A DNA stretch of 62,692 nt, filler included, from Globobulimina sp. (Eukaryota), in NCBI GenBank assembly GCA_003354225.1. It is 31 parts of 31 records of this genome, joined end to end, with 100 filler letters (N's around TTAATTAATTAA, not from the genome) between each part and the next. Parts side by side here need not be neighbours in the genome. Positions count along the whole stretch, not along the records: positions 30,396 to 32,321 come from PIVH01010527.1; positions 32,422 to 34,346 come from PIVH01010528.1; positions 34,447 to 36,371 come from PIVH01010529.1; positions 36,472 to 38,396 come from PIVH01010530.1; positions 38,497 to 40,421 come from PIVH01010531.1; positions 40,522 to 42,446 come from PIVH01010532.1; positions 42,547 to 44,471 come from PIVH01010533.1; positions 44,572 to 46,496 come from PIVH01010534.1; 23 more parts are not named here. One strand, 5' to 3'. The position numbers were made by a program, and so were the translations under genes. The notes under the pieces were generated by a model. The model did not search any database. It saw only the letters and a program-made list of their open reading frames with translations, and was not told where the DNA came from. Positions 30,396-57,762 of the stretch are shown here, piece after piece. Positions within the stretch are counted from its first letter, which is position 1; each line of letters opens with the position of its first letter.

Positions 30396-30627
30396 CTTTT
30401 TTAAATGTTTTTATTTTTGTTATTTGTTTAATATCTTCATTTCCTCCATTACCTTGTTGTCCCTCCTCATTCGCACCAATAGAATACAATTCAAATGTTG
30501 TATATATTATATACTGGAATGCATGAATGACACTAATAATATCTCTATGGATGTATTGAGACCTAGATTTTCTAACATATCCACTTACTAATAATTGGGA
30601 CCGTCTTTTCCTGACAGCATTGTTCAT
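30396..30627 (-). CDS. RCC1-repeat protein with the N-terminal GYxR motif, 3'-partial
   Basis: LLVSGYVRK...IHRDIISVIHAF then LYSIGANEEGQQGNG (start of an RCC1 repeat). Confidence 0.7.
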
Positions 30628-30755
30628 GTTTTGTTAAAGGGCCGAAACTTAATTGTTGCTTAGACGTCACTTCCTTGGTGATATTGCAGTGAACATTTCT
30701 CTAAAATTAAACAAACACTCTCAAGAAGAAGAGGATGGATTTATTGTGTCTTTCA

Positions 30756-31382
30756 TCATAATCTGTTATTCTCTGCAGCTAATTTGACCAATTGTCGATT
30801 GAATGTGGCATTTTTTAGTATCGATACTTGTCGTTTTTGTCTTACCATATCAATGGCATCCAATATCCGCAGCTTTTCATATTTTATTAAATATCCAACA
30901 ACAATGGATACGGATCGGTTTACGCCACTCACACAATGCACCAATATCTTTTTATTTTCATTCCTACATTTTTCAATGAACTTAAATGACTGTTTTCCGT
31001 GTTTATCAATTATTGGATAGTCATTTTGATCAATGGCATTTATTACTTTTCTTTTGAAATTGTTTGGCCATTTGATTCGATTAAATTCCATTTCTAAGCC
31101 TTTACCTCCACAATTTAGAATTCTCTCAATGCCAATTCCATTTAATTTATCGATATCTTTAGCAAATTGATAGTTTGACACATATAAAAAACCAGCAATT
31201 ATTTCCGCAAAATCAATATTATCATTACAATTGTATTTGCTATTTATTTGTTTGACATATAATTGTATACTATCCGCAGTAACTTTTGGTTTCAATGATG
31301 CGTACCAAGTGTTTATAACAATACATCCAATTCCTATTCCTACGCATATTGTCGCAAGCTGAGTTAGCTGACTGTGTGACAT
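30756..31382 (-). CDS. Dual-specificity protein phosphatase with N-terminal TM/signal anchor
   Basis: EIIAGFLYVSN, GIERILNC, KKILVHCVSGVNRSVSIVVGYLI (HCx5R), KNATFNRQL. Confidence 0.93.
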   Translation of the reverse strand: MSHSQLTQLATICVGIGIGCIVINTWYASLKPKVTADSIQLYVKQINSKYNCNDNIDFAEIIAGFLYVSNYQFAKDIDKLNGIGIERILNCGGKGLEMEFNRIKWPNNFKRKVINAIDQNDYPIIDKHGKQSFKFIEKCRNENKKILVHCVSGVNRSVSIVVGYLIKYEKLRILDAIDMVRQKRQVSILKNATFNRQLVKLAAENNRL

Positions 31383-31439
31383 TATTAGACCACTCTTTGA
31401 ATTTGAAAAAACTAAAAGTTGTTTAGTCAGGTTTGCGTA

Positions 31440-31919
31440 ATGGACAGCCGCGCCAACTCTCTGTGTATTCTCGTTTTAGCATGCACATTACCAGCCGTTA
31501 TCGTTTTAACAAACACTAATTCATACATCCAAGGATTGGCATCATGTGTGGTTGGAGCATATTTAACATTTACCGTATATTTTATTTATTTAGCAAAAAA
31601 AGATGCTTGGTATTGGTATGTACTCTTAAGTACAAGGGACAGTGAAGAATTTGCCCGCTTAGTTCGGGCCCGGCGAGAATATATGTTTAATACATTACGG
31701 CCAGGTGGTAATATACCAGAAAGTTTATATCAAAGTATGGCACAATCATTGATGTTGTATTTTCTCCATCATTTAACAGCTGATCCGGCCCAAAATAACG
31801 TACCTGTTATAGACGACATTTATGATTTACAAAATGCGTGTTTCGGCCATGTGCTTTTTTCTATCGCGGCAAGCCATACAGCAGATATGCTCGTAATGGC
31901 TCTTGATGACTCTTATTAA
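31440..31919 (+). CDS. Hypothetical 2-TM protein
   Basis: ATG at 31440, two hydrophobic helices, divergent from the DUSP. Confidence 0.5.
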   Translation: MDSRANSLCILVLACTLPAVIVLTNTNSYIQGLASCVVGAYLTFTVYFIYLAKKDAWYWYVLLSTRDSEEFARLVRARREYMFNTLRPGGNIPESLYQSMAQSLMLYFLHHLTADPAQNNVPVIDDIYDLQNACFGHVLFSIAASHTADMLVMALDDSY

Positions 31920-32674
31920 TAAATAAATGTCTCTTATTAAGTAATTTATGTACATATAATTAATATAGATTCAATTAATAGTGATACATTAATGGACCTT
32001 TTTGATTTGTTTGTGATATTATGTATCATGTGCAAATCGTACCTAATTTGAGCTTGCTTGTCCAAATATTTAATTTTTAATTCTTTTTGATATTCTCTTT
32101 GTTTTTTTTTTGTTTTATTTTGATTAATTGAATTTAAATAAATAAGTAAACAATTATATTAATATACAGCAAAACAATTTCGCTTTTTCCGATGACTACT
32201 AGTAAATTCCCGACATTAGGCAGCATAGAAAAGTTATTCAATATCAGCAAGATTGAAGCAAAGAAATTGACGTTGAGATATTTTGCAACTCGCCAACGTG
32301 AGAAGGAATATATTTTGATGGNNNNNNNNNNNNNNNNNNNNNNNNNNNNNNNNNNNNNNNNNNNNTTAATTAATTAANNNNNNNNNNNNNNNNNNNNNNN
32401 NNNNNNNNNNNNNNNNNNNNNGAATTAAAACTGAACACAATGCTATCTACGATATTTAAATTAACAAACATTACAATGATAAGATAACACAACTTATTCT
32501 TTATAAACAACAAATATCCCTCTCCACTTAAAACAGCACAATCTGACCACCAAATTAACAAATTAATTATCATTAAAAAAAAAACAAAAAAAACAATCAA
32601 AAACAAATTAAATTACACAAAAAAAAGCCAACAAACAAATATTTATTTTTTATTATATAACAAAATAAAATATC

Positions 32675-34346
32675 TTAACTTTCAATGCGATTCAATCGTT
32701 CCGGGTGTACTCCGTTTAACTCATTACTTACTTCTTTCGTACTACTCTCCAACGTCGATATCGTTGTAGTTGTCGTTGTCTGCACGGCTGAATCCTCCCT
32801 CCTTCCTTTCCCTTTTCCTCTCCCCTCATCACTCTCATACTCACTGCTCTCGCTATCACTATCACTGTCACTCTCCGACTCCGACGACTCACTCTCACGG
32901 AACTTGCGTCGACTCCGCCTATCCCGGTCTCGCTCCCTCCGCCTCCCTCTCATATCCCTTCTATCCCGATACCGATCGCGGTAATCTCTCCTATGATTAT
33001 TGTACCGCATATCCCTGCGACCTCTGTAATTATTATACCCTCCGCGCCTTCCACCAAAATGTCCATTGTCGCCACGCGATATCACTCTCCTCCGATTATT
33101 GCCTCTCTCCTCCCTTCGATGCACACGCTCTCTATCACGCTCTCTATTTTTATGCAGTTCCCGCTCTTTCTCCTTCTCCTTCTCCTTCTCCCTATGTCTA
33201 TGCATTTGCCTTTCTTTCTCCTTCTCCTTCTCCGCTCTCTCACGCTCTGCTCTCTCTTTCTCTTTTTCTATCTGCGCCTTTTGCTGCTGCTCCGTATACA
33301 TTTTATACCGCTCCATTTCCTCCGCACCCAACGCCTTCACTCTCTGCTCATTCTGCTCCCTCTCATCGCCGCCCACAACCTGCCAAAACACAAACGGTTT
33401 ACACTGCGTCATATTGAACAGCTCGCTCGGTGTCTTACTCTTTCTTTTCAGGGCAACCCGCACCTTCTCCTCCTTCACCATACGAACGTCGCCGCTGCCA
33501 TGTCTCAGTTGTTTCGTATCAAACGATCGCGGTCTCTGCGCAGTGCCGCTTTTGCCATCACGCATATTATTATTCCCCTCCATGATAAACGTCATCGCCT
33601 CCACCATCTTCACGTGTTTTACCTGCAATTTCCCCGCATGGATCTGCGGGATATTGGGCGGGAAAAACGTGCCATTCATGCCGCCCTTGCATTTATCCGC
33701 ACTCTCTGACGAGACATAGATGACAAAGCAATGCGATTTGATCGCATTCATTCGGAAGGATTTGTACGCGCCGTATTTGTCCAATTCTTGCTGCACCTTT
33801 TTCGTTTGCAGCGGGCGGCGGAACCCATCGATGAATAAGGCACAGCCGGCCACAGTGTCCATTTTCTGACTGTCCGCAGTGTGCTTGATGTCATGTGAGC
33901 TGTCGTTTAAATCCATGTTTGTATCCACATCCACGTCGACGTCGGCTGCTTCTTCTTCGTCGCGTTGATGTGGCGGTATGTATAGCCGACTGGTGTCGGA
34001 TAACGAGGATTGAATCACAATCCTCGCTCCAACGCCAAAAGTGGCCGTTTTTGTGTGTTTGGGGGATTTTGGGGGTGATTGGGTCGGGGCGTTGTTTTCG
34101 GGATTGTTATCGGTGTTATTCAACCGGCGACGTTTATGAGATGGGTTATTCTCAGAATCTACCTCGAAATCGCGGACCGAGCGTTTTTTGGTGTGGTTGG
34201 TGGTGGCGATGGGTGCGGAGGCGGTGTTTGTGGGAGTATGGGACTTCGAATTTGAATTTGAATGAGATTTTTGTTGTTTTAATAGCTTTTCGCGTAATAA
34301 ACGAGCACGCATAGCGGCCAATTTTTTATCGCGGGCTTCGGCTTCG
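32675..34346 (-). CDS. Acinus (ACIN1)-like RRM + RSB motif + RS/RD-rich protein, 5'-partial
   Basis: RRM ALFIDGFRRPL...MNAIKSHCFVIY...MNGTFFPP; RSB-like PSELFNMTQCKPFVFW; long RE/RD tail. Confidence 0.8.
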
Positions 34347-34447
34347 NNNNNNNNNNNNNNNNNNNNNNNNNNNNNNNNNNNNNNNNNNNNTTAATTAATT
34401 AANNNNNNNNNNNNNNNNNNNNNNNNNNNNNNNNNNNNNNNNNNNNT

Positions 34448-35098
34448 ACTGTTCGTACTTATATAAGACGGTACCAGAATGCCAAAAACACTGATAAATG
34501 GATAGAACCTCTCAAACTGCGAGTTCATCATTATAACCGCACAGTTTCAAGAGTAACTGGACAGAAACCTATAGACATACTCAAAGATGGTGAAGCTGAT
34601 CAAGCTGCTTTTGATAAAATGTATGGCTCAGAGGAAAAAGATGAGAAAGAAGCCCCAAAGAAAGATGACCCCATTGTTGGAGACCATGTTAGACTATCAC
34701 GAATCAAAGGACAATTTGATAAAGAATCTGGACCTTCTGGAAACTATACCAGAGAATACTTCACTGTGAAAGATGTATCAAGAAGCCAGAAGATTCCCAT
34801 GTTTGGATTGAAAGATTCCAAAGGAAAAGCCTTGGAGGGCAGAGCCTATGGTGCTGAGATACAGAAAATCCATGTGGAACCAGAAAAAGACTTCTTCGAA
34901 GTATCAAAAGTATGGCGAAAGAAGAAAGTTCGTGGCAAACAAATGGCTCTAGTTTCATGGGTATGTTATCACTGATTCAGTCATATATTCAATCAATAGT
35001 TATTGCAGGTTGGATACACTAGAAGACATGATACTTGGATCCCTGTAACCGATTTGAAAACCTTGCAGCCAGATACTAGAAATATTGGACTTCAATAA
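34448..35098 (+). mobile_element. Polinton/Maverick-type rve integrase C-terminus + chromodomain, 5'-partial, intron 34961..35008
   Basis: TVRTYIRRY..NTDKWIEPL..YNRTVSRVTGQKP; VGDHVRLSRIKGQFDK..NYTREYFTV..LKDSKGKALEGRAYGAEIQ; spliced chromodomain FEVSKV..LVSW|VGYTRRHDTWIP. Confidence 0.85.
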
Positions 35099-35585
35099 CT
35101 ATTTATCATTCTTGTATTGTATGATTTACTGTGCGGTGTGCTTTGTGAAAATGCTCTTGACAATGCTTTCACATGTTTTTCAACGGTCTCAGTCTACAGA
35201 TAGCCAACGCTCTGGACCTAAAGGGATCACAATCAAAATTTTCCTGTACTGCTCTATCCCAACATTTTTCCTCTCAAGTGGCCTCACCTTCTTCATCGCA
35301 TCATTTTCCCATGGCAACTGTCAAATGCAAAACTGTACTGACATTATGGTTATGGATCAAATATCGGCTGAACTGGACATACGATACCCACTGCCTGATT
35401 CTTATGTGAGAAGTCTGACCATGAAGAACAACTCCGAAACTTATTTGCATTTCGAAGGAAAAGATATATGCCAATTGAAGACAATTCTGAAATCCTGCCT
35501 AACTTCTGATTGTTGGTACAAGAACCTTGGAAAAAGTGAAAGCACTGACTTATATAAAATGTTTGAAAAACTTGTACTTTGCTAA
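35085..35585 (+). CDS. Hypothetical ORF downstream of the integrase
   Basis: 166-codon ORF; start uncertain; no family recognised. Confidence 0.3.
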   Translation: MDFNNYLSFLYCMIYCAVCFVKMLLTMLSHVFQRSQSTDSQRSGPKGITIKIFLYCSIPTFFLSSGLTFFIASFSHGNCQMQNCTDIMVMDQISAELDIRYPLPDSYVRSLTMKNNSETYLHFEGKDICQLKTILKSCLTSDCWYKNLGKSESTDLYKMFEKLVLC

Positions 35586-35706
35586 TGAACAAACTTATTT
35601 GTCATGTTAGGTTTTATATGAATAAAATTGTATGTCAAACCAAGTAATCAAATTGAACAACACATAATCAGTAGCACAAGATTGTAACAATAAATCACAT
35701 TGAATA

Positions 35707-36371
35707 TTAATCCTTTTCGAGCCATCTCAATATAGCATGGGCTCCAGAGCTGTCTGCTCGGGGAAGAATCAATGTCATATCTTTGCCATTCTGCTCAGCT
35801 TCCCAGAGTCTACCTTCATTCTGCAATTTGCCCAACAATGTTTCCTTTGTTAATGGTTCTAAGGACTGACAGGTTTCACAGTTTGGTTGCCACCAACACT
35901 CCATGACATGATTGGCAAGTTCTAATTCCTTTCTTTCTTCATTGTGAAAATGTTGAATCATAAAGTCCATTATAACAGGGGTGAAAATGTCACTGATGAA
36001 TGGGATGTGCTGCACCACAAGATTTTCATCATCTCCATCAACGATCTCTGGCATTTCGTTATGAATATATCTCCTGAAGCTGCTTCGAACTAACTGATGA
36101 TCACTTATGGCATCGATGATCAGCTTTCGGTGCTTGGATATCTGTGCAGACATCGCCATATTGCATAAATGGTCTTTTATTTCATAAGGGGCCATACACT
36201 GCTCTTCTTCATCCATGTATTGGCAAGACAAGATGGTCGCATCATCAACCTGCAGAGATAATAGTAAAAAACCATATAGAGAATGCAAATGATGTTACCA
36301 TTTCTCTAGCTTCTTGTTCCAGAAAGTATATTATATCATTTTGATAAGTTTCTTCCACATTGCTTGGGCAT
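35707..36371 (-). CDS. Hypothetical protein, 5'-partial (intron 36250..36298)
   Basis: A GTAACA...CTGCAG intron joins YFLEQEAREM to VDDATILSC in frame; contains CETC. Confidence 0.55.
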
Positions 36372-36471
36372 NNNNNNNNNNNNNNNNNNNNNNNNNNNNN
36401 NNNNNNNNNNNNNNNTTAATTAATTAANNNNNNNNNNNNNNNNNNNNNNNNNNNNNNNNNNNNNNNNNNNN

Positions 36472-37405
36472 TGGCAAACCGCACAAATTAGATTTGAATG
36501 ACTGGAAAAAGGAGGAAGGCAAAGAAAAAGAAGAGAGAAAAGATCCATTTTATCGCAGTCGACCGGATGCTGCAACATTGGAAGAAAAAATTGTGGAAAA
36601 TATAATGAAGCGATGTATGCATTTTATATCCTCAAAAGTGATGGAAACCAAATATTTGTCGTTGTGTATTGTGGAAAGAAGTATATTTATTTTATCCTTT
36701 CGAAAGAAAATATTATTACCGATTATAGCAAGCTTTTGGAAATCATTTGTTTTTGTGATTGCGGAGAAGGATAAATCGATTATTTTAAAATGTTACGATG
36801 TTTTATTGGTTATTTGTAATCATTGCGGTGGTTTTATAAAAAGAAGGTTTGAAAATGATATCTGGCCATCGATGAGATATAATATCGAAATAAATTGGAA
36901 TATAATTAAAAAGAGGCTAAGTAACACTGATTTGGATCAAACCATCGAAGTTAAAGTAATTAATCAAATCTTAAAATGTTTAATATCATTGTTAACAGTG
37001 AATGGTAGTAAAAATAAAGAAGATATTGAGGATAAATTAAAAGTGAAAGATGTAGAAACTGTAAAAATAATGTTTTCCAAAATTGGCAATGAAGTTGTTT
37101 CCCAATTAATTCCTTTGTTGAATGATATTGAAATTCCAGTTGCTTTGGCTCAGAATGTAATAAATGTTTTAGTATTATTTGCCAATATTATCGATAAACA
37201 AATGATTTGGTTCAATTTATTTGTATTGGATCCAAAATATATGGCGAGTTATTATGAGAAAAACTATATAGATATTAAAAGACGTAGTAATTTGAAGAAT
37301 ATGCATCTGTTTAATTTGAAGCAATTTGTGACTGATAATGTGCGTGCTGCACCAAACCAAAACTTTCATTTGTATGTCCAAAAATTGATAAACTTGATTG
37401 AGTGA
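36472..37405 (+). CDS. TTI1 (TELO2-interacting protein 1)-like C-terminal HEAT region, 5'-partial
   Basis: IMKRCMHFISS...LLPIIASFWKSFV...CYDVLLVICNHCGGFIKRRFENDIWP resembles the TTI1 C-terminal motifs. Confidence 0.75.
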
Positions 37406-37440
37406 ACCTTTTCAGTTCAGTACTATTTTTACTTTAAACC

Positions 37441-37971
37441 ATGGCAGCAATACCTTTAGAAAAACTAAAGAAAATGCCAGATAAATACAAATATATTATA
37501 TATGGATATGTCAGGAATATTCAACAGATTTTACCTTCAGATGATAGCTTCTATTTCATTCCAGAATTGGTTAATTATATTATATTGCTGTATTATAAAA
37601 TTGTCGACACATTCGATGTTTGTGGAGATGAGCTTAAAATATCTGAGAATAAATCAACTGTCGCAACTGTCACAAATTCGTATGGGAAACGATCATGTTA
37701 CGGACAAATGAGCATTTTATCGACGAATTGTAGTGTTAATAAATGGGATTTAAAAATAAATTGCCTGGCTAAATTATTTGTTGTTGGAGTAGCATCAAAT
37801 AAAGAATGTGTCGATGATTTTACATCAAATAAAGAATCATTTAACTATGGATATAATGGCTTCAGTGGAGGCAAAGAATCAATGGGGAATTATCAATTTA
37901 ATGGAACAACGTATAGAAAGGGAGATATTGTATCCATTAAATTTACTTACCGTAGAGCATTTAGAAAATGA
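37441..37971 (+). CDS. SPRY/B30.2 protein with the N-terminal GYxR motif; SPRY truncated near 37940
   Basis: YIIYGYVR..FIPELVNYIILLYY; LKISENKSTV, KWDLKI, VVGVAS, YGYNGFSGGK, YRKGDIVSIK, then unrelated sequence. Confidence 0.75.
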   Translation: MAAIPLEKLKKMPDKYKYIIYGYVRNIQQILPSDDSFYFIPELVNYIILLYYKIVDTFDVCGDELKISENKSTVATVTNSYGKRSCYGQMSILSTNCSVNKWDLKINCLAKLFVVGVASNKECVDDFTSNKESFNYGYNGFSGGKESMGNYQFNGTTYRKGDIVSIKFTYRRAFRK

Positions 37972-38393
37972 GCTTTTTAAAACTAGTTATTAATAATCAA
38001 TCTGTTGTTTTACCCCAGAATGTAGTTATTCGGATGGTTTACAAGCTGCCTTATCCTTTTCTTAACAATATTCCTGCAGCTATTACTTATTGGTTTAATT
38101 TGCCGTCGAATGATATAAACGACAAGATTTTTAAACATGCGAACTATATTTACTTTAGTGAAAGTATTATCTCCTTAGATTGCTTCCTACATATTGGAAG
38201 TAAGCAATTAAAAGGAAGGTTATACTTAAAGGATGCCAACATTAAACTGTATAAAGCCTTTATCGTATTTAATGACCTGGTAGAAGTGCTTTCGACTAAA
38301 AAAATGAAGGAGGTAGCAAATGATAATATTTCTCTTGGAACTACAACCAACCACATTGTTGCCACAGCTAAAGCGCTCCAAAAAACTCCTTAA
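37968..38393 (+). CDS. Probable bacterial (Bacteroidota-like) phage structural/tail protein N-terminus
   Basis: ATGA start/stop overlap; MSFLKLVINNQSVVLPQNVVIRM..P..ITYWFNLPSNDINDKIFKHA resembles such phage proteins as I recall them (not searched). Confidence 0.4.
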   Translation: MSFLKLVINNQSVVLPQNVVIRMVYKLPYPFLNNIPAAITYWFNLPSNDINDKIFKHANYIYFSESIISLDCFLHIGSKQLKGRLYLKDANIKLYKAFIVFNDLVEVLSTKKMKEVANDNISLGTTTNHIVATAKALQKTP

Positions 38394-38496
38394 TCTNNNN
38401 NNNNNNNNNNNNNNNNNNNNNNNNNNNNNNNNNNNNNNNNTTAATTAATTAANNNNNNNNNNNNNNNNNNNNNNNNNNNNNNNNNNNNNNNNNNNN

Positions 38497-38699
38497 TGCA
38501 TCAAATGAAAAAACATCAAAGGGAGGAAATGCGGAAACAAAATATTTTGAGAGGATGCGTGGTTAAACCGATCAGAAATATGCATAAATTGAAAAAATTC
38601 TCAAGGAAACAATGGCGATCTGTCATGAAAGCATCGGTTGAGATCCATAATGCGAGAAATCGGGTCCGTAATACTTTTGTGCCAAGACAATTACAGTGA
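38497..38699 (+). CDS. CCDC86/Cgr1-like nucleolar protein C-terminus, 5'-partial
   Basis: RKQNILRGCVVKPIRNMHKLKKFSRKQWRSVMK resembles the Cgr1-family motif (VQVIRNPAKLKR..KKQLR). Confidence 0.55.
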
Positions 38700-38787
38700 A
38701 TTCAAAAAAAAAAACCTAAGTCAGCCTTGTATACTGTAAGCTAACTATGATTTAAATAGAAGTTGTTGTTGCTATTTGCAATGACAG

Positions 38788-39459
38788 CTACAATACTAAG
38801 TGGTATTCGAAACCGCACGTTTGAGCAGCAATAAAGGCATAATATGGTACATTTTTAATAATTGGCATAGCCCCTACTTTCTGATTATTTCTATAAAATG
38901 TCACCTCTCCGGCATCACAATCAACGCTAACTTTAATTACATCATTGACTTGCCATACATGAATAGTGTCTTGATCATCTGGAGGATTGCTAGTGTCATA
39001 ACTTGTAAATAATTGTCCATTGCCACAGTAACAATATAAATCTGCAGGTGCATAGGCGCACCATTTACTTTCAAATTGGCAAATGTCTGTGTTTGACATT
39101 ATACCAATTGCATCGCGAGGATTATGTGCCATTTGCACACATTTTATTTCAAATTCATTGATTCCTTTTAGAAACATGTTTGATGAACATGCTGTAATAT
39201 CATATCTTGAAGTATTAGTAACACCATTCCGTCTTAACACAGTTCCATTTTGCAATAAATATTGAGCATGAGATTCATGAATTATATCAAACGCAAAGAA
39301 TATATTTCCTAAAAATACTGCAATTACATCATTTAAATCCATTACATAATTCATATTATCGTTCATTTGCAATTGAAATATCATTAGTTGCATTTTGACA
39401 TAGCCGTCAATTAAATATTTCAATTTTTGTTTAAACGGTGGTGTCTGAAAAGATTGCAT
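38788..39459 (-). CDS. SPRY/B30.2 protein with the N-terminal GYxK motif
   Basis: YLIDGYVK..MDLNDVIAVFL; FLKGINEFEIKC, DAIGI, YCYCGNGQLF, WQVNDVIKVSVDCDAGEVTFYRN, YYAFI. Confidence 0.85.
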   Translation of the reverse strand: MQSFQTPPFKQKLKYLIDGYVKMQLMIFQLQMNDNMNYVMDLNDVIAVFLGNIFFAFDIIHESHAQYLLQNGTVLRRNGVTNTSRYDITACSSNMFLKGINEFEIKCVQMAHNPRDAIGIMSNTDICQFESKWCAYAPADLYCYCGNGQLFTSYDTSNPPDDQDTIHVWQVNDVIKVSVDCDAGEVTFYRNNQKVGAMPIIKNVPYYAFIAAQTCGFEYHLVL

Positions 39460-39515
39460 TTAATAGTTTACAGAGCGGTATCAGTTTTAGTAAAGTGCAA
39501 GGACATGTTTTCAGA

Positions 39516-40193
39516 TTAAATGACTTGATATTTAACATTATTGCTTTGTAAACCCATCATTGGATAGTATGTAATACTTGGTATAATATGTATGTTTTCT
39601 CCAATCTGTATATCATTTTTAAAGAAAGTGACCATCCATTTATTGCAATTCACACAAACTGTAATGATATCGCCTTTTTTCCATTTTGAATCAATTGGAT
39701 AATTTGATTTATTTAATTTTAATTTATTTTTTGTGTTTACACCATAAAATATTCCGCCACCACTCCAATAATAATATAAATTCCCTTCGACCATTGACCA
39801 AAACATATCATCTTTATTACAAGAGATTGTATTCGATGTTATTCCAATGCAATCACTCTTTGGTTGAACACATTTTATCCTAAATTCATTAATTCGATGT
39901 GATATTGATTGAGATGAACATATTATATATCTTGTATAAATTTTATGTATTTGTTCAGGTTGAGGTTTGACAATCAATTTACCATTTTCTTGAATGTGAT
40001 TCTTATATTTAGCTGGATATAAATCAAAATTCATATTCCAAATGTTATCCACATACGTCATTATCAGATTATTCAAACATTTTGGGTATACGCACGTAAT
40101 TGTAGACGTAGATGTAGTGTCATTCGCAACGACTGATGTCAATTTTTTCATATATCCATCCACCACTAACATTTTATCACGCAAACTGTCCAT
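39516..40193 (-). CDS. SPRY/B30.2 protein with the N-terminal GYxK motif (tandem paralog)
   Basis: LVVDGYMKK..YPKCLNNLIMTYV; INEFRIKC, DCIGI, YYYWSGGGIF, WKKGDIITVCVNCNKWMVTFFKN, YYPMM. Confidence 0.85.
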   Translation of the reverse strand: MDSLRDKMLVVDGYMKKLTSVVANDTTSTSTITCVYPKCLNNLIMTYVDNIWNMNFDLYPAKYKNHIQENGKLIVKPQPEQIHKIYTRYIICSSQSISHRINEFRIKCVQPKSDCIGITSNTISCNKDDMFWSMVEGNLYYYWSGGGIFYGVNTKNKLKLNKSNYPIDSKWKKGDIITVCVNCNKWMVTFFKNDIQIGENIHIIPSITYYPMMGLQSNNVKYQVI

Positions 40194-40692
40194 GAAAGAT
40201 CATGCACAAAAGGATGACTAGCTCAGTTCAAAAAAATCTTAATATCAGGGTTCTCACCTCTTAGACGACAAATGTTTAGGTTTAAAGCAATATATATAGA
40301 TCCGCATCAATGCCATAATGTAATACTTTAGAATAGGACCTGTTTGAAACACATTGTTTTTAAAATTACAGTTTGAATTCAAAACATTTCGTTTTTGAAA
40401 CACTGCCTGTTTATAGCCTATNNNNNNNNNNNNNNNNNNNNNNNNNNNNNNNNNNNNNNNNNNNNTTAATTAATTAANNNNNNNNNNNNNNNNNNNNNNN
40501 NNNNNNNNNNNNNNNNNNNNNAAAGCATACAATTTATGACCAAATTTACCTGATAAATCCTCTCCTGGTTTTTTTTTGTGATCATATTGTATGATTTTGC
40601 ATGATTTTGTATGATCCATTATCTCGGACGAGATCCCCTTCAAAAAAAAAAATCATACATTATGATCATTTGTATGATTCTTCCTCTTATAG

Positions 40693-41671: not shown

Positions 41672-43127
41672 TTTGTTTTTTTGTTTGTCAATATTTAAAA
41701 GTTTTCATCGGATTTTTGGGTTTTTTTTTTAAGACAGATTGATGTTTATCTTGCAGTGAGCACCCAAAACATCAAAAACACAAACGTTTGGATTTTTGGA
41801 CTCTGCCAGTATGGACGAAGACAGTCCTTACATTTTTTTTCGATTTTATGCATACAATTTTTTTTTCTATGCATTTTAATCATGTCAAAATTTAATTTTT
41901 TTCATCGAATTATGATGAATTTTATTAATCTGATTTTGTGTAAATGGTATTTACCATTTCGCTTATACTGCGCACAGAGCTTATTTATGATGTTATCTAA
42001 AACCTGTGAAAAAAAAATTAATCACTGGACACTTAAGTCTGATTAATTCGATGATTAAATGCTTGAATTTTGAGGTTTTTTCGGAATGATGATGCTTAAA
42101 CACAGTTGTGAAAAACAGCATATTTTGAGCATCTACTTTGAAGTCACTAGCAATGCGTTTTTAGTACTTTTTACGACAAAAAATGGAAATATCAAATATT
42201 ATGGATCGATTACCAATGAATATTTAAACACTTTAATCACATTTTCGCGGTTCTTGACAAGAAACTTCATTATTTACTCTTTCCATTTGTACATCTGACA
42301 ATATTTTGGATATGTAATCAAATATGCTCATTATGGTGGTTTGGCGGCGAAGGAGAGGCATTTTGCGTCGCCAGAAGCGATGCAAATAATTATAGGAGTT
42401 ACGGTGTCGGCGATGCAAATTCATCGCTTTGGAAGAAGACGGCTTCNNNNNNNNNNNNNNNNNNNNNNNNNNNNNNNNNNNNNNNNNNNNTTAATTAATT
42501 AANNNNNNNNNNNNNNNNNNNNNNNNNNNNNNNNNNNNNNNNNNNNTGAATAAATTGTACATCTCAAGACTCAATATGAGTGGTGCAGGTTTATGGTTTC
42601 AATATGTCATTTGTATTGGAGGGTTTATGTCTACAGTTTGGATTGCTATGACCTAGTTTATTACGCATTTCCTGATTTTTCATTATGTGAAAAATGTATG
42701 TGGATATTTAACTGTGTTGTAATGGGAATATGGAATTTTAATATGGCAGTGAGACACGTACGTACGTACAAAAAGTGTTATTCGTTTCTATTTGCAAGCT
42801 TAGGTTTGTTGTCAATAAAACGTTTTACTGCCTAGCTCTTTCCACAGAAACAGTGCGGTACTCAGTCATCCAGAGATATTCAAAGAAAAAATCCAAGGGA
42901 TGATCAGGTGTTACGTAATAAAAAAAACAATCCGAACCCGTAACTTAGTATTTCTAATTCGAAAACGTGCTCAAATATCATTCAAAAAAGCATTACCATG
43001 TAATCACAATTCATAATCAATACAATTAAACGTATCATTCTCATTCAAAAGTTATGTCCAATTATTTGATAAAAACAATGTATCCAATAAAAAAATAATC
43101 AATCAATCAATCAATGTATTCAATTCA

Positions 43128-43676
43128 TCACAGTTCCGATTTGGGGAAAGAGTCATTATTATTATTCCCGTTCGAGCCATCATTTGGTTGATTTGATTTC
43201 ATTTCCTGTTCCCATTCACGTGCCAATTCTTCATGCAATGTATTCTTTGCATGTTCCGCTTTGCATTGCAAATAATACGATCCACCCACTTTAGGATCAT
43301 TGTATTGAAATATGTCTTCAAAGTACTATACAGTACATAATGTTTTTAAGAAATTTCCAGAAAGTTCCAAATTGTGAAATGCGTTCTTCTATGTACTAAA
43401 CTTGCGTGATTTGTTCTGCTGTGTATGATTTATCCACATTTAGTATCTTCCTCGCTTGTGATGCATCCATTTTGCCCATGATTTTATTTGCTGCCTGTTT
43501 AGCTCCGGCGGATGTACTCTCTGTAACGTACATATGCATATATGTATCGTCAAACATTGGAGTATATAAATCGCGTAACTATGCTGTGCTTGTGCCAGTG
43601 CCTGAGTGAATGCGCGGACAAACACATTTCCAGCAGTAAACAATACTTGTGCTAGCAATCTTGCCCATGGAGCCAT
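43128..43676 (-). CDS. PAM16: Mitochondrial import motor subunit Pam16/Tim16, three exons (introns 43521..43579 and 43326..43401)
   Basis: Spliced product MAPWARLLAQVLFTAGNVFVRAFTQALAQA..KMDASQARKILNV..ITQ|YFEDIFQYNDPKVGGSYYLQCKAEHAKNTL matches the Pam16 J-like domain. Confidence 0.9.
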
Positions 43677-43743
43677 GGTATCTGTTTGATAATAAGGATA
43701 AAGTTTTTGTTTAATATCAGACTGTGCAGTACCATCGTTAATA

Positions 43744-44139
43744 ATGGCATCGGCTGCGCCAAGCAACCAATTATTTGAGAACCACCCACAGAGTTTAACT
43801 GATACGGTATGCTCAGGGTTGGGAAATATGAATGGATCGATTGATGCATTTGTTGAGATAGCAGACAATGAATCTGAAAATGAAGAAATATTAGAAATAT
43901 CAGCTACATTCTCATTGTTTCCATCGTATTGTGAATCGCCAGTAATTTATAATAATACAAAACTACGACAAAGTGTAACCTCACCAATACAATCATATTT
44001 ATCAACATTTATTTTTGATACAACAAATCATGAAAACGACACAAATCTAAAAACATTAACATTTGGAATGATCGACACCACAAATCCAACAAACGTAACA
44101 AAGCAAAATGGAATTAATGATAAAAAATGCAAAAAATAA
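43744..44139 (+). CDS. Hypothetical protein divergent from PAM16
   Basis: ATG start 67 nt from the PAM16 start; no family recognised. Confidence 0.4.
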   Translation: MASAAPSNQLFENHPQSLTDTVCSGLGNMNGSIDAFVEIADNESENEEILEISATFSLFPSYCESPVIYNNTKLRQSVTSPIQSYLSTFIFDTTNHENDTNLKTLTFGMIDTTNPTNVTKQNGINDKKCKK

Positions 44140-44571
44140 AACAATGTCAAATAAAGTATGGACTGACGACATTTTGGATTGAAATTCATTGAAAAGAACA
44201 TGCGATTTTTTAGACTCTATCTTTTATATTATATTTGTTTTGTAATTGTCACTGTAATAATTATATTTATACTTATATTTATTAAATTACACTTAAACCA
44301 TTTAACTGCACACATTAAAGCCCAATAAGTATTTTACGAAAATTCAATTATACATATCAAAACTAAAACAGGGACACCATGTTTTGCGTCCATTCGCACA
44401 GTGTGACTTTTTTTAAAAAAGACTGTTTATTGCAAAATCATGTCTTCGATCCCTTTTGTTTCAGAACCTGANNNNNNNNNNNNNNNNNNNNNNNNNNNNN
44501 NNNNNNNNNNNNNNNTTAATTAATTAANNNNNNNNNNNNNNNNNNNNNNNNNNNNNNNNNNNNNNNNNNNN

Positions 44572-46421
44572 CCTCAATGGATAATATTTTGGACGATTTT
44601 TATGACATTGATACCGATGAAGAGTTTGTACGCGGCAATGAACTTTGTATGGCACCAGCACCAACTATTGATAATGCGAATGAATGCCAAGATCAAGAAT
44701 TTGAGGAACCCATTGATGAAAGCTCAGAAAGTGATTCTTCGGATGAAGATGATAATGAAGAAGATAAGGCAAAATATGAGAAATATTTGACAGAGAATGA
44801 AATGGTTATATTTGAAGTCCCGTTGGATAATAATAGAACACGTAAATGGTTTATATATAAAAAAACGGCCGTTAATTTAGCATTAGCAACAGCTGAAATT
44901 ATTAAAGACATTAAATTCGAGAATTTCGCTGCGTCGAAAATGTCAATATTTCGGGTGCCATATGTTTCTGATTCGGGTACTAATAATAACATTTAAATCA
45001 AAAAAAAATCGAATTTAAATCGATAATAAATCACTTTGAAAAGATTTTTTTATTTATAAACGATTTAAATTCGATTAAAAATATGATTTAAACTTAATTT
45101 ATTTGCAGGATCAAATTATAAAAAATGCATTATGCGGACAATGCAACACGAATTTCAATGGTTTCCGTGTGATCTTCATTTCGCATCCACTATTTTACAA
45201 AGAAATTACAAATATATTTTAGCAAAATATCCAAAATGTGTTAAAATTGATAATGATATTGACAGAATAGTAACGAAAATTAATAAATCTGATCGGAAAA
45301 CATCAATGAATCCGACATTAAAATCCAAATCGAAAACACGTTTTTGGGACATTTTTGAGCAAAAATATGCATTTTGTAATAATGTTAATATGATTAAAGA
45401 GGTCTGGGAGTCGTTGGGAGGGGAGAAATTATGGGCTGGTTGTAAAAATAATTGGAATTTAACGCAAGCATTTTTAACAGTATTAGAAACGATAAAGATT
45501 TTTATGACTAGAATGGAGGCTGATTATAAATCAACATCGGATAAAATTATTTATTATGCGCTGAAATTAATTATTGGAGATTTAGATTGCATGAAGCAAC
45601 CAAGCAAATTTCCACTTCAAAAATATCATTTAACAAAAAAAGGTGATGAATATTTTTATAATTTGGTTCATCAAAGAAAATTAAAAAGAAACCTCAAAGA
45701 ACGATGGCTGCAAACTATTGATGATATCAAAGAAGACCTAGGAGTTGAATATGAATCAGATGATGCTAATGATCATGTAATGGATCCAAAAGGATTTTTA
45801 AAATCCGATGAATATAAAAAAATAAGTGCGAAAGTTGATGTATCACATATTTATTTAGATCCGGCCAAATTAAATAGAGGAAATACAGCAATTATTGAAT
45901 ATTTTTTACATCGTAGGAAAATTGAAATTTTTCAAAAATATATTTATGATCAATCAAATTGGTGCTGGATGGCTTTAATAGTAAATCCAATAAAATATCA
46001 ATTAGTTAGACATTGGGGCACTGAGGAAGTAATTGATATTAATTTATTTGGATTTAAAACGAGTAGAGATAAAAAACGATTTGAAGAGGAGCGTGTAAAT
46101 AACTTTAATGTATCAGAGATATTAGATAAGAAAATAAACATTTTGAAAAAAATAATTGATAAAATGAAAGATTTATATGATATTTTTACGGCTGAAAAGA
46201 AAATTAATTGGTTAAATGGGCAATATAAAAAATGGCAAATTCCTCCGGAATTTCGCAAGAAAAAGAAAAAAACAAATAGTAAAAAAAAAGAAGTGAAAGG
46301 AGCCAAAGGGATGCAGCAAGAGATGCAATTTTATATAAAGACAGTGATTGGGGCGATAGACCCTTATTCGATGTTAATTTCAATTTTGATGAAAATAGTA
46401 GTAGTAGTATGTAGTATGTAG
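44572..46421 (+). mobile_element. hAT-family transposase, internal fragment (intron 44977..45108; probably another intron near the 3' end)
   Basis: Spliced YVSDS|GSNY (DNxxN-like), WFPCDLHFAST (CxxH), SKTRFWD (TRW-like), WNLTQAFLTVLETIKIFMTRMEAD, MALIVNP. Confidence 0.75.
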
Positions 46422-46720
46422 TAGTACTACATTTAAAAAAAAAATAAAAAAAATATTTTTTTTCAATTTTTTTTTTACTATTCATTAATGAAGGTTNNNN
46501 NNNNNNNNNNNNNNNNNNNNNNNNNNNNNNNNNNNNNNNNTTAATTAATTAANNNNNNNNNNNNNNNNNNNNNNNNNNNNNNNNNNNNNNNNNNNNTTAA
46601 ATATAAATCTTTCCGTTGCTTATCCGACGTGAAACCCCGATCATCAAAAGCAAAAATGTTTAATTTTCATCCTTTAAGTTCACTGAAAAACTGTAAAGCA
46701 AGCTACAAACTCGAAGAGTC

Positions 46721-47804
46721 TCAATTGGCATCAAATACATTGGGAAATATTGTCAGTCCATTGACAGTGACCACTTCCATGCTCAATGTTATATAAAATG
46801 CATTGACTTTGCTTAACACATCAGATTCAAACAAAGGTTCCAAATATTCAAAGGTCACATTTTCTAAGAATGAGATTGTTCCTTCCCTTTGAATATTTTT
46901 ATAATTAGTTTTTAATATATATCTGACTGAAATTGTAGATATTTTTTCAGGTTTTTTATACAACGTTAATGCAATTTGAATTTTTTTGGTGTTGCTTAAT
47001 TTGTCATAGTCCATAGGTATTATCCATAGCCCCCAGTTATTATTATATTCATCAAATGTATCACTTAAAAACATTTGTTTGGTGCCTGCAGTTCTGAATT
47101 TTTTTATCATTATTTCATCAAAATCCCATTTAAAATTTAATTCTTTTTTCATTTTTATTGGTTTAAAATATGATAATGTGCCATCGCTATATTTGATGGA
47201 TAATATTTCAAAATAATAACTCAAATTTATACTTTGAAAATCCTCACATTTTAAGTACATAACATATTCGTAATAATGCCAATCATCGGAAGAAACAGCA
47301 ATATATGGCACCACATATCGAAAATGAGCATTGTTTTCAGCACAAAATACTTCGGAATAAATCGTGATTTTTTCAACTCCATTTGGTAAGAAAACATATA
47401 AATAAAATACTGTATCTTCATTTGTCTTATTTGGTTGCAAACTGCATTGCATTTTAACATCGTTTTCATAAAATATTTCTGTATATAACTGATTTTTTTT
47501 GTTATTATCTTTATCACAACGTGGCAAATTATAATATGGCTCTAATTCATTTACATCAACATTCCAATGTTGCACTTCATCGTAATATCTCAAACATATA
47601 TGCACTACATCTTGCGGCACAATATGAAAGGTACAATTTCGTACAAACCCATCTAGCAATAATTGCTTTAATAGCCATGATTCTGGTAATACTTGAAAGT
47701 ACAGTCCTATTTTATAGAATTAAGTTAACAATGACAGTCGATGACAGACAAAGCAACGTTAACATACTTCCAGGCGGTGCATTTTCTCGGGAGTCTTCTG
47801 CCAT
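46721..47804 (-). CDS. GFxR-motif protein with tandem MATH/TRAF-like domains (intron 47707..47767)
   Basis: MAEDSRENAPPG-R|LYFQV..LLLDGFVRNCTFHIVPQDVVHICLRYY; FKWDFD..MFLSDTFD..WGLWIIP..IQIALTL (MATH-like). Confidence 0.7.
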
Positions 47805-47840
47805 TGTTTAAATAGATCTTTTTGCTACTCTGACAATTAA

Positions 47841-48521
47841 ATGACCTCTAAACGAGAAGAAAAGTCCCCTCCAGGAAGTTGGTGTTGTTTATATTTATAT
47901 GTATTGTATTGTTCAAAATAAAAAGAAATTATATCTATATGTTGAGCAGGATTGCATTATCAAGTGACGCCTCAATCGGTGCAATTAAAACAATTATTGG
48001 TTGCTGGTTTTGTGAAAAATACTGCTCAATGTCTTGTACCATCAGATATCACAAGAATATGTGCTAAATTCTATGATGAAGTGATGTATTGGAATTTGGA
48101 TCGCAATGAATTGGAAAAATATTATAAATCAAACGAAATATTTACTGAAATATTTGAGATGAATGACATCAAATTGAAATGCAGCTTTTATTTGCATGGA
48201 TTTTTGCCCAAAGGGGTTGAAAAAGTAAGCATTTATTCAGAAGTATTCTGCACAGAGAATGAAGCACATTTTAGGTATGTTGCAACTTTAAAAAAGCTAC
48301 CTCCATTATTTCAAAATGACGCGTGGCTCCGAGAAGAATATGTTATGTATTTGAAATGTGAACAATTTCAATGCATTAATTTAGCTGTTTATTTTCAGAT
48401 TTTGTCCGTGAAATATACGACGCAGAAAACAGTGCATTTAATTTTAAACCAGTATTCATGAGCGGCAAAATATGTTTCACCTGGAATCTGAACGATGTCA
48501 TGATTAAACAATTGAGAAATG
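47841..48521 (+). pseudogene. Head-to-head paralog of the previous gene (intron 47878..47949), frameshifted near 48415, 3'-partial
   Basis: Same intron position (PPG-R|); shared YSEVFCxENxAHFRYV and EYVMYLKCE; homology continues in another frame (FNFKPVFMSGKICFTWNLNDVMIKQLR). Confidence 0.7.
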
Positions 48522-49911: not shown

Positions 49912-50546
49912 TTATTTGCGACGATATAGAAAAATAGCAAATATAACAAGCATAAATGGTGCGGCACATTGAATTACAATTTTTTTCATCAAAACTTTGA
50001 CAGAATTAATAATCCATTGTTGTTGCCATTTTTTAAATTCATTCATAGTATTAATATGCGGAAATGTTTTATTTTTTGGTATTGGCTTATTTAAGAATTT
50101 ACATAATGGCTCCCATCCATCTTTCACATCAAATAGCAATAATTGTTGGGGAGGAACTTTTTTTTTAATAAATGCCAGCGGTACGTCATAATATTTTTTT
50201 TTGCAGTGTTGTTTATTGCTAACATTCAAATATTGTTTGCAATCATAATAATTTAAATAATATTGTCTTGCGGTTGACATATTGGAATCAAATAACGACA
50301 GGAATCTGACCCTATAATCACTATACAAAACTTTTATTATTTGCATATTACTTTTATACCATCCATCGAAATCACGTACATTTACAATAACTTTTGCATT
50401 TGGATATTGATCAAATATTTTATGCCAATAAAAGACCACTGGTGTATCCATAATGACATTACATTTAATAATTTGCAACCATTCATCAAAACTTACATGA
50501 GCATTCATCTTTAATTTATCCAAAATGTCATTTTTAACCCACCATT
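49912..50546 (-). CDS. Sulfotransferase-family (Sulfotransfer_4-like) protein with C-terminal TM, 5'-partial
   Basis: DTPVVFYW..YPNAKVIVNVRDFDGWYKS; VPPQQLLLFDVKDGWEPLCKFLNKPIP..FPHIN. Confidence 0.88.
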
Positions 50547-57700: not shown

Positions 57701-57762
57701 AATAAAACATCAACAACATCAAAGTTTTGCGTAATCTTTTTTGCCGCCCCAGCTTAGCCTTG

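Follow-up and report, generated by a model that had tools for sequence, protein, structure and literature searches.

Our analysis points to a short module that heads small binding proteins in at least three foraminiferal genera and that is very probably both homologous and mobile between partner domains, being fused to SPRY, MATH and RCC1 domains. As judged by profile searches, the module is previously unannotated and belongs to no Pfam family. The window analysed, 62,692 nucleotides in all, consists of 31 Globobulimina contigs of ~1.93 kb each joined by N spacers, and EukProt entries under the name Globobulimina turgida match its proteins at 97-100% identity. An open-reading-frame reading of the window found all six segments where the initial annotation had placed them, in six proteins on four contigs (30396-32321, 36472-38396, 38497-40421 and 46597-48521), as follows.

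30396..30627, minus strand: gene 1, an RCC1-repeat gene of which the contig end leaves only the 5' part (ORF; module ~30502-30603, residues 9-42)
37441..37971, plus strand: gene 2, a type-B module and a divergent SPRY domain (module ~37447-37623; a stop at 37971 shortens the SPRY)
38788..39459, minus strand: gene 3, a type-A module and SPRY, 223 aa (module ~39295-39426; Pfam SPRY, module HMM)
39516..40193, minus strand: gene 4, a type-A module and SPRY, 225 aa (module ~40041-40163; module HMM, SPRY-only HMM)
46721..47804, minus strand: gene 5, a module and tandem MATH-like domains (module ~47558-47668; sequence reading, spliced joint); exon 1 47768-47804, intron 47707-47767, exon 2 46721-47706
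47841..48461, plus strand: gene 6, a module and MATH-like domain, the divergently transcribed paralogue of gene 5 (module ~47985-48089); exon 1 47841-47877, intron 47878-47949, exon 2 from 47950

The module genes of the window thus include both tandem and divergent duplicates: genes 3 and 4 are tandem copies, with gene 4 lying 56 bp upstream of gene 3, and gene 6 is 51% identical to gene 5. The module genes are expressed and spliced. Genes 5 and 6 each have a 37-nt first exon followed by a phase-1 GT..AG intron; the spliced joint of gene 5 is present in contigs of public runs X8 and X2, and the GT..AG joint of gene 6 in contigs of public runs X7 and X8. Five extra bases at 48436 in the window, a difference seen against all four public runs, are the probable cause of a premature end of the gene 6 ORF. 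The earlier description of the motif as opening all six proteins does not hold for the two MATH genes, where the short exon precedes the module, so that it does not lie at the extreme N-terminus. The Pro of the motif is absent from gene 3 and the RCC1 gene.

In genes 2-4, the domain that follows the module is SPRY, as identified by Pfam match and by the B30.2/SPRY beta-sandwich fold. Gene 3, which is 97% identical to EukProt P0001, matches Pfam SPRY at E 3.9e-7 (30.6 bits vs. a cutoff of 26.3), and gene 4, which equals EukProt P0002 except for a 4-residue indel, falls slightly below that cutoff of 26.3 (E 1.2e-5, 25.9 bits) and matches the family SPRY-only HMM at E 9.6e-52. The SPRY of gene 2 has no Pfam match, and the SPRY-only HMM (E 3.7e-5) is the sole support for SPRY there; by BLASTP against outside proteins, only the module of this gene was alignable (E 2e-12, 6e-12 and 4e-8). 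The gene 1 fragment (77 aa) matches RCC1 (E 0.079) and WD40_RLD (E 0.021), both under the Pfam cutoff, and has three paralogues, P0003-P0005, that are 68-70% identical to it. One of these, P0004 (320 aa, with the 68-70% identity to gene 1 lying in its N-terminus), carries precomputed PF00415, PF13540 and PF25390 matches and has the architecture of module plus RCC1. Gene 5 matches Pfam MATH_2 at E 8.9e-4 (19.9 bits vs. a cutoff of 32) and aligns over its full length with P0158, a protein from Bolivina argentea in EukProt (BLASTP E 1e-8), in which the module is followed by two MATH_2 stretches (52.5 bits vs. the cutoff of 32). Gene 6 has no Pfam MATH match (PF22486, PF00917), and atlas leads linking to MATH/TRAF clusters scored <0.9.

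The claim that one homologous module is fused to the three kinds of domain is borne out by HMMs trained on outside sequences, which recover the MATH and RCC1 genes as well as the SPRY genes. An HMM built from the N-termini of 90 outside SPRY-family proteins, with no window sequence in it, was scanned against 980 ORF pieces from the window and ranked the six ORFs 1-6, with E-values of 1.6e-12 (gene 3), 1.2e-6 (gene 4), 4.2e-4 (the RCC1 gene), 6.2e-4, 4.3e-3 and 0.023, the next non-member piece standing at 0.12. A second HMM, from the N-termini of 15 outside "type B" SPRY proteins only, gave E 1.4e-16 for gene 2, 1.8e-6 for gene 5, 6.1e-6 for gene 6, 3.5e-3 for the RCC1 gene, 0.044 for gene 4 and 0.1 for gene 3 over the same 980 pieces. 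With this second HMM, the modules of the MATH genes score 22-24 bits as against 8-9 bits for the type-A SPRY genes of the window. As judged from these scores, the MATH modules are nested within type-B SPRY diversity, which points to domain shuffling. A loose regular expression, G[YF][LIVMC][RK], has eight matches in the open frames of the window, six of which are the module; by itself it is insufficient to define the module.

The contrary view, that in a genome rich in AT the N-termini, being short and hydrophobic, resemble one another by chance or composition and share no ancestry, can draw on the fact that Gly is the sole invariant residue among the six window modules, and on the weak E-values (0.001-0.37) of a leave-one-group-out HMM test within the window only. 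In that test, the left-out members came top among the non-training pieces in three of the four groups, and in the fourth one noise piece stood above one member (E 0.0087 for the RCC1 gene, and 0.0011, 0.025, 0.19, 0.37 and 0.07 for genes 2-6). However, the HMM trained on 90 outside sequences places all six ORFs ahead of every other piece, with non-SPRY members reaching E ~1e-6 with outside-trained HMMs, the module always lies directly ahead of a globular domain, and the same fusion recurs in another species (P0158). We consider a chance origin extremely improbable, and it is effectively refuted by the two HMMs trained on outside sequences alone.

The module spans 40-60 residues and reads [LIV][LIV]xG[YF][IVM][RK], a variable loop of 5-25 residues, and then [YI]Pxx[LI]xx[IV][IC]xx[FY]. 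Helix 1 is amphipathic with the near-invariant core [LI][VI]xG[YF][IVM][RK], and helix 2 is Pro-capped and leads straight into the first strand of the SPRY, MATH or RCC1 domain. In an alignment of 95 sequences, the core shows G in 79/95, Y/F in 92/95, I/V/M in 79/95 and R/K in 70/95, and mean information is 1.46 bits per column in the module vs. 1.53 in the SPRY domain. On these alignment statistics, the module shows the conservation of a functional element. Type-A modules also share a subfamily-specific FLGNI..FD junction (family consensus ...FLGNIllrFD). An AF2 model of gene 3 (pLDDT 90.8, pTM 0.82) predicts a helix at 9-32, a loop and a helix at 41-53, with pLDDT 82-89 over the module block, followed by the SPRY sandwich, whose first strand is at 57-60. 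The SPRY fold of the model resembles TRIM9/67, RanBP9/10, Ash2L and SPSB2 at Z 15-19, and the fold matches include SPSB and GUSTAVUS-Elongin BC structures and a TRIM25 coiled-coil-PRYSPRY structure.

We also find that, as the initial annotation had supposed, the family is very large: a search with a module-plus-SPRY profile returned 590 cluster representatives at E<=1e-3, 147 of them at E<=1e-10. All 11 of the matches that bear an organism name are foraminiferal; the expectation that the family is lineage-specific is thus upheld as far as seen, and the module, seen so far only in Foraminifera, looks lineage-specific from these sequence matches. Most members are ~200-250 aa long and consist of the module and SPRY and nothing else, so that any output beyond binding must pass through the module. 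Other architectures in other species include the module with two MATH domains, SAP with the module and SPRY, and internal copies of the module, which always abut SPRY (residues 175-211 of 380 in P0013, 139-175 of 358 in P0090 and 435-469 of 676 in P0159). Some members carry SAP or chromo/Tudor-like N-terminal domains.

The earlier statement that the adaptor could be assigned to no named family also stands, as neither the six N-termini nor the 95 family members gave a Pfam match for the module, and the PDB gave no sequence relative. For the six N-termini at E<=10, there was no match to F-box, SOCS-box, BTB or any other family, and for the 95 members there was no F-box, SOCS_box, BTB, RIIa or Dpy-30 among 25 families listed of 48; these Pfam negatives are to be read with the fact that HMMER filters discard most matches with E > ~0.1. 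Among the same 25 families listed of 48, the only recurrent ones are SPRY (67 members) and DUF7693 (4 members). Sequence and profile searches of the PDB with the module returned no relative, and no PKA or DPY-30 chain.

In the F-box, a box of ~40-50 residues, the LPxE helix is the first of three. The resemblance to it proposed at the outset fails on architecture: the module consists of two helices and then the first SPRY strand, so that helices 2 and 3 of an F-box would not fit. PF00646 and its relatives gave no profile match in the Pfam searches above, and the Pro-capped helix at 41-53 runs into the SPRY strand at 57-60, a junction that the family consensus (...FLGNIllrFD) also displays. The parallel drawn with the SOCS box fares no better, since the module has an aromatic at the BC-box position expected to be small. 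The BC-box consensus is [STP]-L-x-x-x-[CSA]-x-x-x-[LIVA]; the best-conserved Leu (71/95) has Tyr/Phe at +4 (92/95), and an alternative register from a weakly conserved Leu three residues earlier has Val/Ile at +4, also not small. The BC-box consensus thus failed in both registers, and the SOCS box, as BC-box plus cullin box, had no profile match. BTB/POZ is an alpha/beta domain of ~95-120 residues, and was rejected for a module of 40-60 residues that is all-helical and has no BTB match. A divergent RIIa/Dpy-30-type dimerisation/docking domain, in which an X-type four-helix bundle serves to bind scaffold proteins by their amphipathic helices, would have a helix-turn-helix size similar to that of the module, and the N-terminus of PKA RII follows a pattern that resembles it, LLxGY... 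then PxD..F...YF. D/D domains have a tight inter-helix turn, as against the loop of 5-25 residues here, and neither the Pfam searches (the six N-termini at E<=10; 25 families listed of 48 for the 95 members) nor the PDB profile searches, which returned no PKA or DPY-30 chain, support such an origin, which we regard as highly improbable.

What might such a module do? We infer that it acts as an autonomous docking unit, that a common partner exists, and that this partner is linked to a ligase. The module would be a docking box through which many exchangeable target-binding domains share a single partner, most likely the adaptor of an E3 ubiquitin ligase, whether of the cullin-RING or another type, and the module proteins would form a large, fast-diversifying family of substrate receptors. 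E3 ligases repeatedly use SPRY, MATH and RCC1 domains for recognition, as in FBXO45, SPSB1-4, TRIMs, SPOP, TRAFs, FBXO24 and RCBTB. We count in favour of docking the homology of the module across partners, the recurrent fusions in other species, its conservation, the size of the family and the predicted structure. Cullins are described as present in Foraminifera (PMC11736642). Against docking to a ligase, we count that no known ligase box was found by Pfam or by PDB sequence, and that SAP and chromo/Tudor-like additions are atypical of ligase substrate receptors. Taken as a whole, including the ligase-type mechanism, the reading as a lineage-specific docking box is a tentative one. The fuller proposal is that Foraminifera made an adaptor box of their own, one with no sequence kinship to the F-box, SOCS box or BTB, and that it connects hundreds of fast-diversifying SPRY, MATH and RCC1 receptors to an E3 ligase, cullin-RING or other; these would constitute a new class of substrate receptor, with a possible role in innate immunity, prey handling or symbiont/kleptoplast management in giant single-celled organisms. 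This proposal is speculative, and we would call it possible but doubtful.

It is also conceivable, if rather unlikely, that the helix-loop-helix dimerises or trimerises the following domain for avidity, in the manner of TRIM and TRAF coiled coils. Some SPRY relatives that lack the module have a coiled coil in the same position, as in P0065 (TRIM_CC, E 1.6e-5) and, judged by eye from K/E-rich helical N-termini, P0075 and P0132, and we count this replacement against ligase docking as it hints at oligomerisation. The hydrophobic stripes on both helices (positions 13, 16/17, 20/21 and 25/26, and 42, 45/46, 49/50 and 53/54) are wide and fit bundle formation, and TRIM25 is among the fold matches. 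However, the conserved core (LVxGYIR) is contiguous, near-invariant and built on a Gly and an aromatic, unlike a heptad coiled coil, the helices are short (~19-24 and 13 residues), and the module is already confidently modelled in the monomer (pLDDT 82-89).

Alternatively, the two helices could form an intramolecular cap, packed against the beta-rich domain behind them and keeping it stable, with no partner of their own, an explanation we judge unlikely. Helix 2 aligns with the pre-SPRY helix of RanBP9/10 IUS-SPRY and SPSB2 (model ranges from 42-44) and may, on the model, belong to an extended SPRY fold; the module always directly adjoins its domain, internal copies, always glued to SPRY, included. 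Both points also weigh against ligase docking. The pTM of 0.82 suggests that the position of the module with respect to SPRY is fixed, and the subfamily-specific junction of type-A modules fits as well. A cap, however, would have to serve three unrelated folds (the SPRY sandwich, the MATH sandwich and the RCC1 propeller), fold-specific packing leaves unexplained why the GY[IV][RK] core persists across all the partner folds, and in gene 2 the module is far better conserved than its SPRY.

Among marine calcifiers and sediment dwellers, Foraminifera are a major group whose molecular cell biology is almost unexplored. A conserved, unannotated module on hundreds of small binding proteins marks a large protein-interaction system specific to the lineage. 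Should the module dock a ligase adaptor, the few boxes by which substrate receptors are defined (F-box, SOCS/VHL box, BTB and DCAF H-box) would be joined by a new one, and the family would suggest that a protist group possesses a large repertoire for regulated proteolysis or immunity. As an oligomerisation or structural element, the module would still be a new Pfam-grade domain that improves the annotation of foraminiferal proteomes. The module HMM offers a simple handle to count and classify the family in any foraminiferal genome or transcriptome.

Among known systems, FBXO45 (F-box plus SPRY) and FBXO24 (F-box plus RCC1) share with the module proteins a short helical box placed just ahead of a variable SPRY or RCC1 domain, and F-box receptors likewise form large, lineage-expanded families. 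F-box helix 1 (LPxEIxxxI) is resembled by [IV]Pxx[IL]xx[IV][IC]xx[FY], with which the module ends. However, there is no Pfam F-box match, only one helix lies between the Pro motif and the SPRY strand, and the module has a conserved upstream GY[IV][RK] helix that is absent from the F-box. SPSB1-4/GUSTAVUS have the same SPRY fold (Z 15-17 to SPSB2 and SPSB3; Foldseek matches include GUSTAVUS-Elongin BC, 2fnj) and a ~40-residue box made of a helix, a loop and a Pro-containing helix, but their SOCS box is C-terminal to SPRY, whereas the foraminiferal module is N-terminal. The module differs from SOCS-box/BC-box receptors more generally in having no Pfam SOCS_box match and in leaving L-x-x-x-[C/S/A] unmet, with Tyr/Phe instead. 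RanBP9/RanBP10 "IUS-SPRY" proteins, of the CTLH/GID E3 ligase, also have a helix directly N-terminal to SPRY, and alignments of the gene 3 model to 5jiu, 5jia and 5ji7 (Z 16.8-18.2) begin at residues 42-44, in helix 2. Helix 1 with its GY[IV][RK] core has no counterpart in these structural alignments, RanBP9 continues after SPRY with LisH-CTLH whereas the foraminiferal proteins end at SPRY, and the foraminiferal module also stands ahead of MATH and RCC1. Finally, TRIM (coiled coil plus PRYSPRY) and TRAF (coiled coil plus MATH) proteins form large, diversifying families with a helical element directly before the recognition domain. The module proteins differ from these in having no RING or B-box and in their short, loop-interrupted helices, with a contiguous motif and no heptads; yet in the foraminiferal relative P0065, a TRIM-type coiled coil precedes the same SPRY domain.

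All six open reading frames (ORFs) that the initial annotation had grouped by a shared N-terminal module were found at their places when the ORFs were read, in a 62,692-base window of 31 contigs of ~1.93 kb each, separated by N spacers, with a GC content of 26-40%. The module is a helix–loop–helix of 40-60 residues with the core [LIV][LIV]xG[YF][IVM][RK], followed by [YI]Pxx[LI]xx[IV][IC]xx[FY].

Module-bearing genes of the window (position, strand, content)
Gene 1: 30627, minus strand, start of an RCC1-repeat gene, truncated by the contig end
Gene 2: 37441, plus strand, module and divergent SPRY domain
Gene 3: 39459, minus strand, module and SPRY domain, 56 bp from its tandem partner gene 4
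Gene 4: 40193, minus strand, module and SPRY domain, in tandem with gene 3
Gene 5: 47659, minus strand, module and MATH-like domain, diverging from gene 6
Gene 6: 47952, plus strand, module and MATH-like domain, 51% identity to gene 5

The proteins of two of these genes are 97% and ~100% identical to Globobulimina turgida entries of EukProt (P0001 and P0002), so the DNA comes from this foraminifer or from a near relative. Pfam recognizes the SPRY domain of gene 3 (30.6 bits, cutoff 26.3), places that of gene 4 slightly below the same cutoff (25.9 bits), returns RCC1 matches below threshold for gene 1 and a MATH_2 match of 19.9 bits (cutoff 32) for gene 5, and gives no family for genes 2 and 6. 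Among outside relatives, P0004, whose N-terminus is 68-70% identical to that of gene 1, has RCC1 families, and P0158, a Bolivina argentea EukProt protein that aligns with gene 5 over its full length (E = 1e-8), passes MATH_2 at 52.5 bits in two stretches. For gene 2, an HMM of the SPRY domain alone, trained on family members from outside the window, matches the downstream part (E = 3.7e-5).

Neither MATH gene has an ATG adjoining its module; read from the DNA, both have a 37-nt exon 1 followed, at a codon position that the two genes share, by a phase-1 intron with GT..AG ends. GT..AG segments are skipped in contigs of public sequencing runs, 47878-47949 in runs X7 and X8 and, on the minus strand, 47707-47767 in runs X2 and X8; both match the introns exactly. 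This spliced form suggests that the contigs represent RNA, the kinds of run being guesses at best. Relative to all four runs, the window has 5 extra bases at 48436, which probably account for the early stop of gene 6, and at 48185-48191 it is shorter by 26 letters than runs X6-X8. The differences at both sites are assembly error or allelic variation, and they affect the frame of gene 6. The stop of gene 2, at 37971, falls within the SPRY domain; past it a clear SPRY C-terminus is found in no frame, the top local score (33, to the outside protein P0142) lies in a different frame at ~38130-38250, and an intron or a frameshift may follow the stop.

The remaining annotated genes are listed separately, and 12 of the 20 large window ORFs scanned against Pfam have no family at E <= 0.001. 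The 208-aa ORF adjoining the RCC1 gene carries, by eye, an HCxxGxxRS phosphatase signature and is probably a dual-specificity phosphatase. Only 36 bp, a very short intergenic gap, separate the end of the TTI1-like ORF from the start of gene 2 on the same strand.

Other genes of the window (coordinates, strand, content)
18619-20070, plus strand, GMC oxidoreductase, ordinary gene on another contig
30756-31382, minus strand, ORF with phosphatase signature
36494-37405, plus strand, match to the TTI1 C-terminal TPR domain (2e-27)
48799-49863, minus strand, alpha/beta hydrolase (Abhydrolase_3), ordinary gene on another contig
49912-50523, minus strand, sulfotransferase, ordinary gene on another contig
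51414-52364, plus strand, complete OTU1-type deubiquitinase architecture (UBX-like domain, OTU protease, C-terminal C2H2 finger), ordinary gene of the ubiquitin system, contig unlinked to the module genes
57727-58644, plus strand, SCAPER_N-containing ORF, ordinary gene on another contig

Within the window, the case for a shared module is weak. Glycine is the sole invariant residue of the six copies, and in leave-one-group-out HMMs built from the six genes only, the left-out members score E = 0.001 to 0.37, being the top non-training pieces in three of the four groups. The question is settled by two HMMs containing no window sequence, which were searched against 980 window ORF pieces. One was built from 90 outside N-termini and the other from 15 outside N-termini of type B, a module subtype with the pattern L.KLK.I...K..V.GFIR..Q.LLP.....YY.IP..I..I.L.YY, to which gene 2 belongs (genes 3 and 4 are type A).

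Matches of window ORF pieces to outside-trained HMMs (E, 90-sequence HMM; E, type-B HMM)
Gene 3: 1.6e-12; 0.1
Gene 4: 1.2e-6; 0.044
Gene 1 (RCC1): 4.2e-4; 3.5e-3
Gene 6 (MATH): 6.2e-4; 6.1e-6
Gene 2: 4.3e-3; 1.4e-16
Gene 5 (MATH): 0.023; 1.8e-6
Next-best window piece: 0.12; 0.59

Since the outside-trained HMMs match and their alignments span both halves of the motif, the SPRY, MATH and RCC1 proteins share a homologous module. Nesting of the MATH modules inside the type-B diversity of the SPRY modules points to domain shuffling. Neither HMM finds a further copy in the remaining 27 contigs of the window.

At E <= 1e-3, a profile of the window SPRY genes matches 590 cluster representatives, of which 147 reach E <= 1e-10 and 14 reach E <= 1e-30, bearing out the very large family that had been proposed. 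Most of the 150 matches listed are proteins of 200-250 aa aligned from the module onward, and the consensus of 93 listed members reads kl.yLVnGYIre.fl.......YPleLN.IIl.FLGNIllrFD, followed by SPRY. In most members, then, the module is the sole element beyond the binding domain. The proposed lineage restriction holds among the proteins that bear an organism name: 11 of 25 looked up, all from Foraminifera (Bolivina argentea 7, Globobulimina turgida 2, Nonionella stella 2), the other 14 being one MMETSP transcript and 13 ENA, Logan or NCBI records. The module HMM finds the module in 123 of the 160 fetched proteins (domain E < 0.01), a count that is partly true by construction because 90 of the 160 are its training set.

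Of 8000 candidates scored in a word-based search with 23 modules, 14 proteins reached E <= 10, including P0158 (module and two MATH domains) and P0159 (676 aa, module at 435-469, then SPRY). Where the protein is longer, the module lies inside it, always contiguous with SPRY.

Internal modules adjoining SPRY (protein, module residues, protein length)
P0013: 175-211 of 380
P0090: 139-175 of 358
P0083: 77-112 of 304

P0083 has an N-terminal SAP add-on (Pfam 2.3e-8), and P0013 has weak N-terminal chromo/Tudor-like matches. By eye, P0084, P0092, P0096, P0125, P0136, P0140 and P0146 join P0083 in a subfamily with a SAP-like segment ahead of module and SPRY, of which only P0083 is Pfam-confirmed, and P0014 and P0022 start with MGNSQ, a possible N-myristoylation signal. 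Some relatives have a coiled coil before SPRY and no module (P0065, TRIM_CC 1.6e-5). P0160, a module-like N-terminus with a long helical region, scores too weakly to add another partner class to the three (word search E = 6.2, module HMM 0.012). PDB sequence searches with P0159 and P0160 gave nothing useful and assigned neither the ~430-residue N-terminal part of P0159 nor the helical body of P0160. Against the ESM Atlas, a whole MATH gene yields MATH/TRAF/BACK clusters as leads, all scoring below 0.9, and the N-terminal 58 residues of P0158 yield no usable match.

For gene 3, AlphaFold2 with a 95-sequence alignment reaches pLDDT 90.8 and pTM 0.82, whereas an AlphaFold model from 5 sequences was too poor (pLDDT 44.6). 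The 95-sequence model runs from a helix (9-32) through a loop to a second helix (41-53), the first strand (57-60) and a beta sandwich, which is the SPRY domain (Foldseek E down to 1.5e-9). It aligns (VIA-align Z 15-19) with TRIM9/67, RanBP9/10, Ash2L, HERC1 and SPSB2/3. The alignments to the "IUS-SPRY" of RanBP9/10 and to SPSB2 start at model residues 42-44, so helix 2 matches their pre-SPRY helix, whereas helix 1 has a counterpart in neither. Judging by the high pTM, the helices may pack on the SPRY domain. Such packing bears on the possibility that the module is an intramolecular cap, a less probable but serious rival reading.

Module and SPRY are equally conserved (1.46 vs 1.53 bits per column), and conservation is lowest in the inter-strand loops of SPRY. 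The contiguous core among 95 sequences is L (71), V/I, any residue, G (79), Y/F (92), I/V/M (79) and R/K (70), and helix 2 is amphipathic (L42, I45/I46, F49/L50, I53). Gene 4 and P0002 differ by a 4-residue indel at 40100-40130, in the Thr/Ser-rich inter-helix loop of the module, a loop that tolerates length change.

The module is conserved and mobile, immediately preceding binding domains of three unrelated folds (SPRY, MATH and RCC1), and it would provide the family's common "output", most likely by docking to a shared partner. Self-association of the module is another serious rival, though a less probable one; full-length gene 3 modeled as two copies scored 0.00, which speaks neither for nor against binding. 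As for docking to a shared partner, SPRY, MATH and RCC1 are classic recognition modules of E3 ligases. A passage of one paper places cullins in Foraminifera (PMC11736642), and together with that recognition role this would tentatively make an E3 adaptor the likeliest partner. A literature search on foraminifers and cullins gave no title on this topic among the matches listed, and in the literature searched no paper pairs foraminifera, or Reticulomyxa, with the SPRY domain.

The initial annotation had likened the module to the F-box and the SOCS box, and had assigned it to no named family. The second point is upheld in the Pfam copy searched: the six N-termini match no family at E <= 10, and the only recurring families among those shown for 95 members are SPRY (67 members) and DUF7693 (4 members). 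Module profiles against PDB sequences give chance-level rows only (ceramide synthase E = 0.16, FliT E = 1). The proposed interpretation is upheld in part: the module, the size of the family and its lineage restriction stand, the ligase link is a candidate reading, and membership in the named boxes falls on anatomy, consensus, position and profiles. An F-box reading fails because only a single helix separates the Pro motif from the SPRY strand. A SOCS/BC-box reading fails on an aromatic residue where the BC-box consensus requires a small one, on N-terminal placement and on lack of a profile match. The RIIa docking domain, which the module resembles in pattern, finds support in no search result, and by eye the order or spacing of conserved residues misfits the consensus sequences of the IQ motif, LisH and the DCAF H-box. 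The SOCS box lies C-terminal to SPRY, and the foraminiferal module N-terminal to it. In joining a constant short module to variable recognition domains, the architecture follows a known style; the box itself is new.
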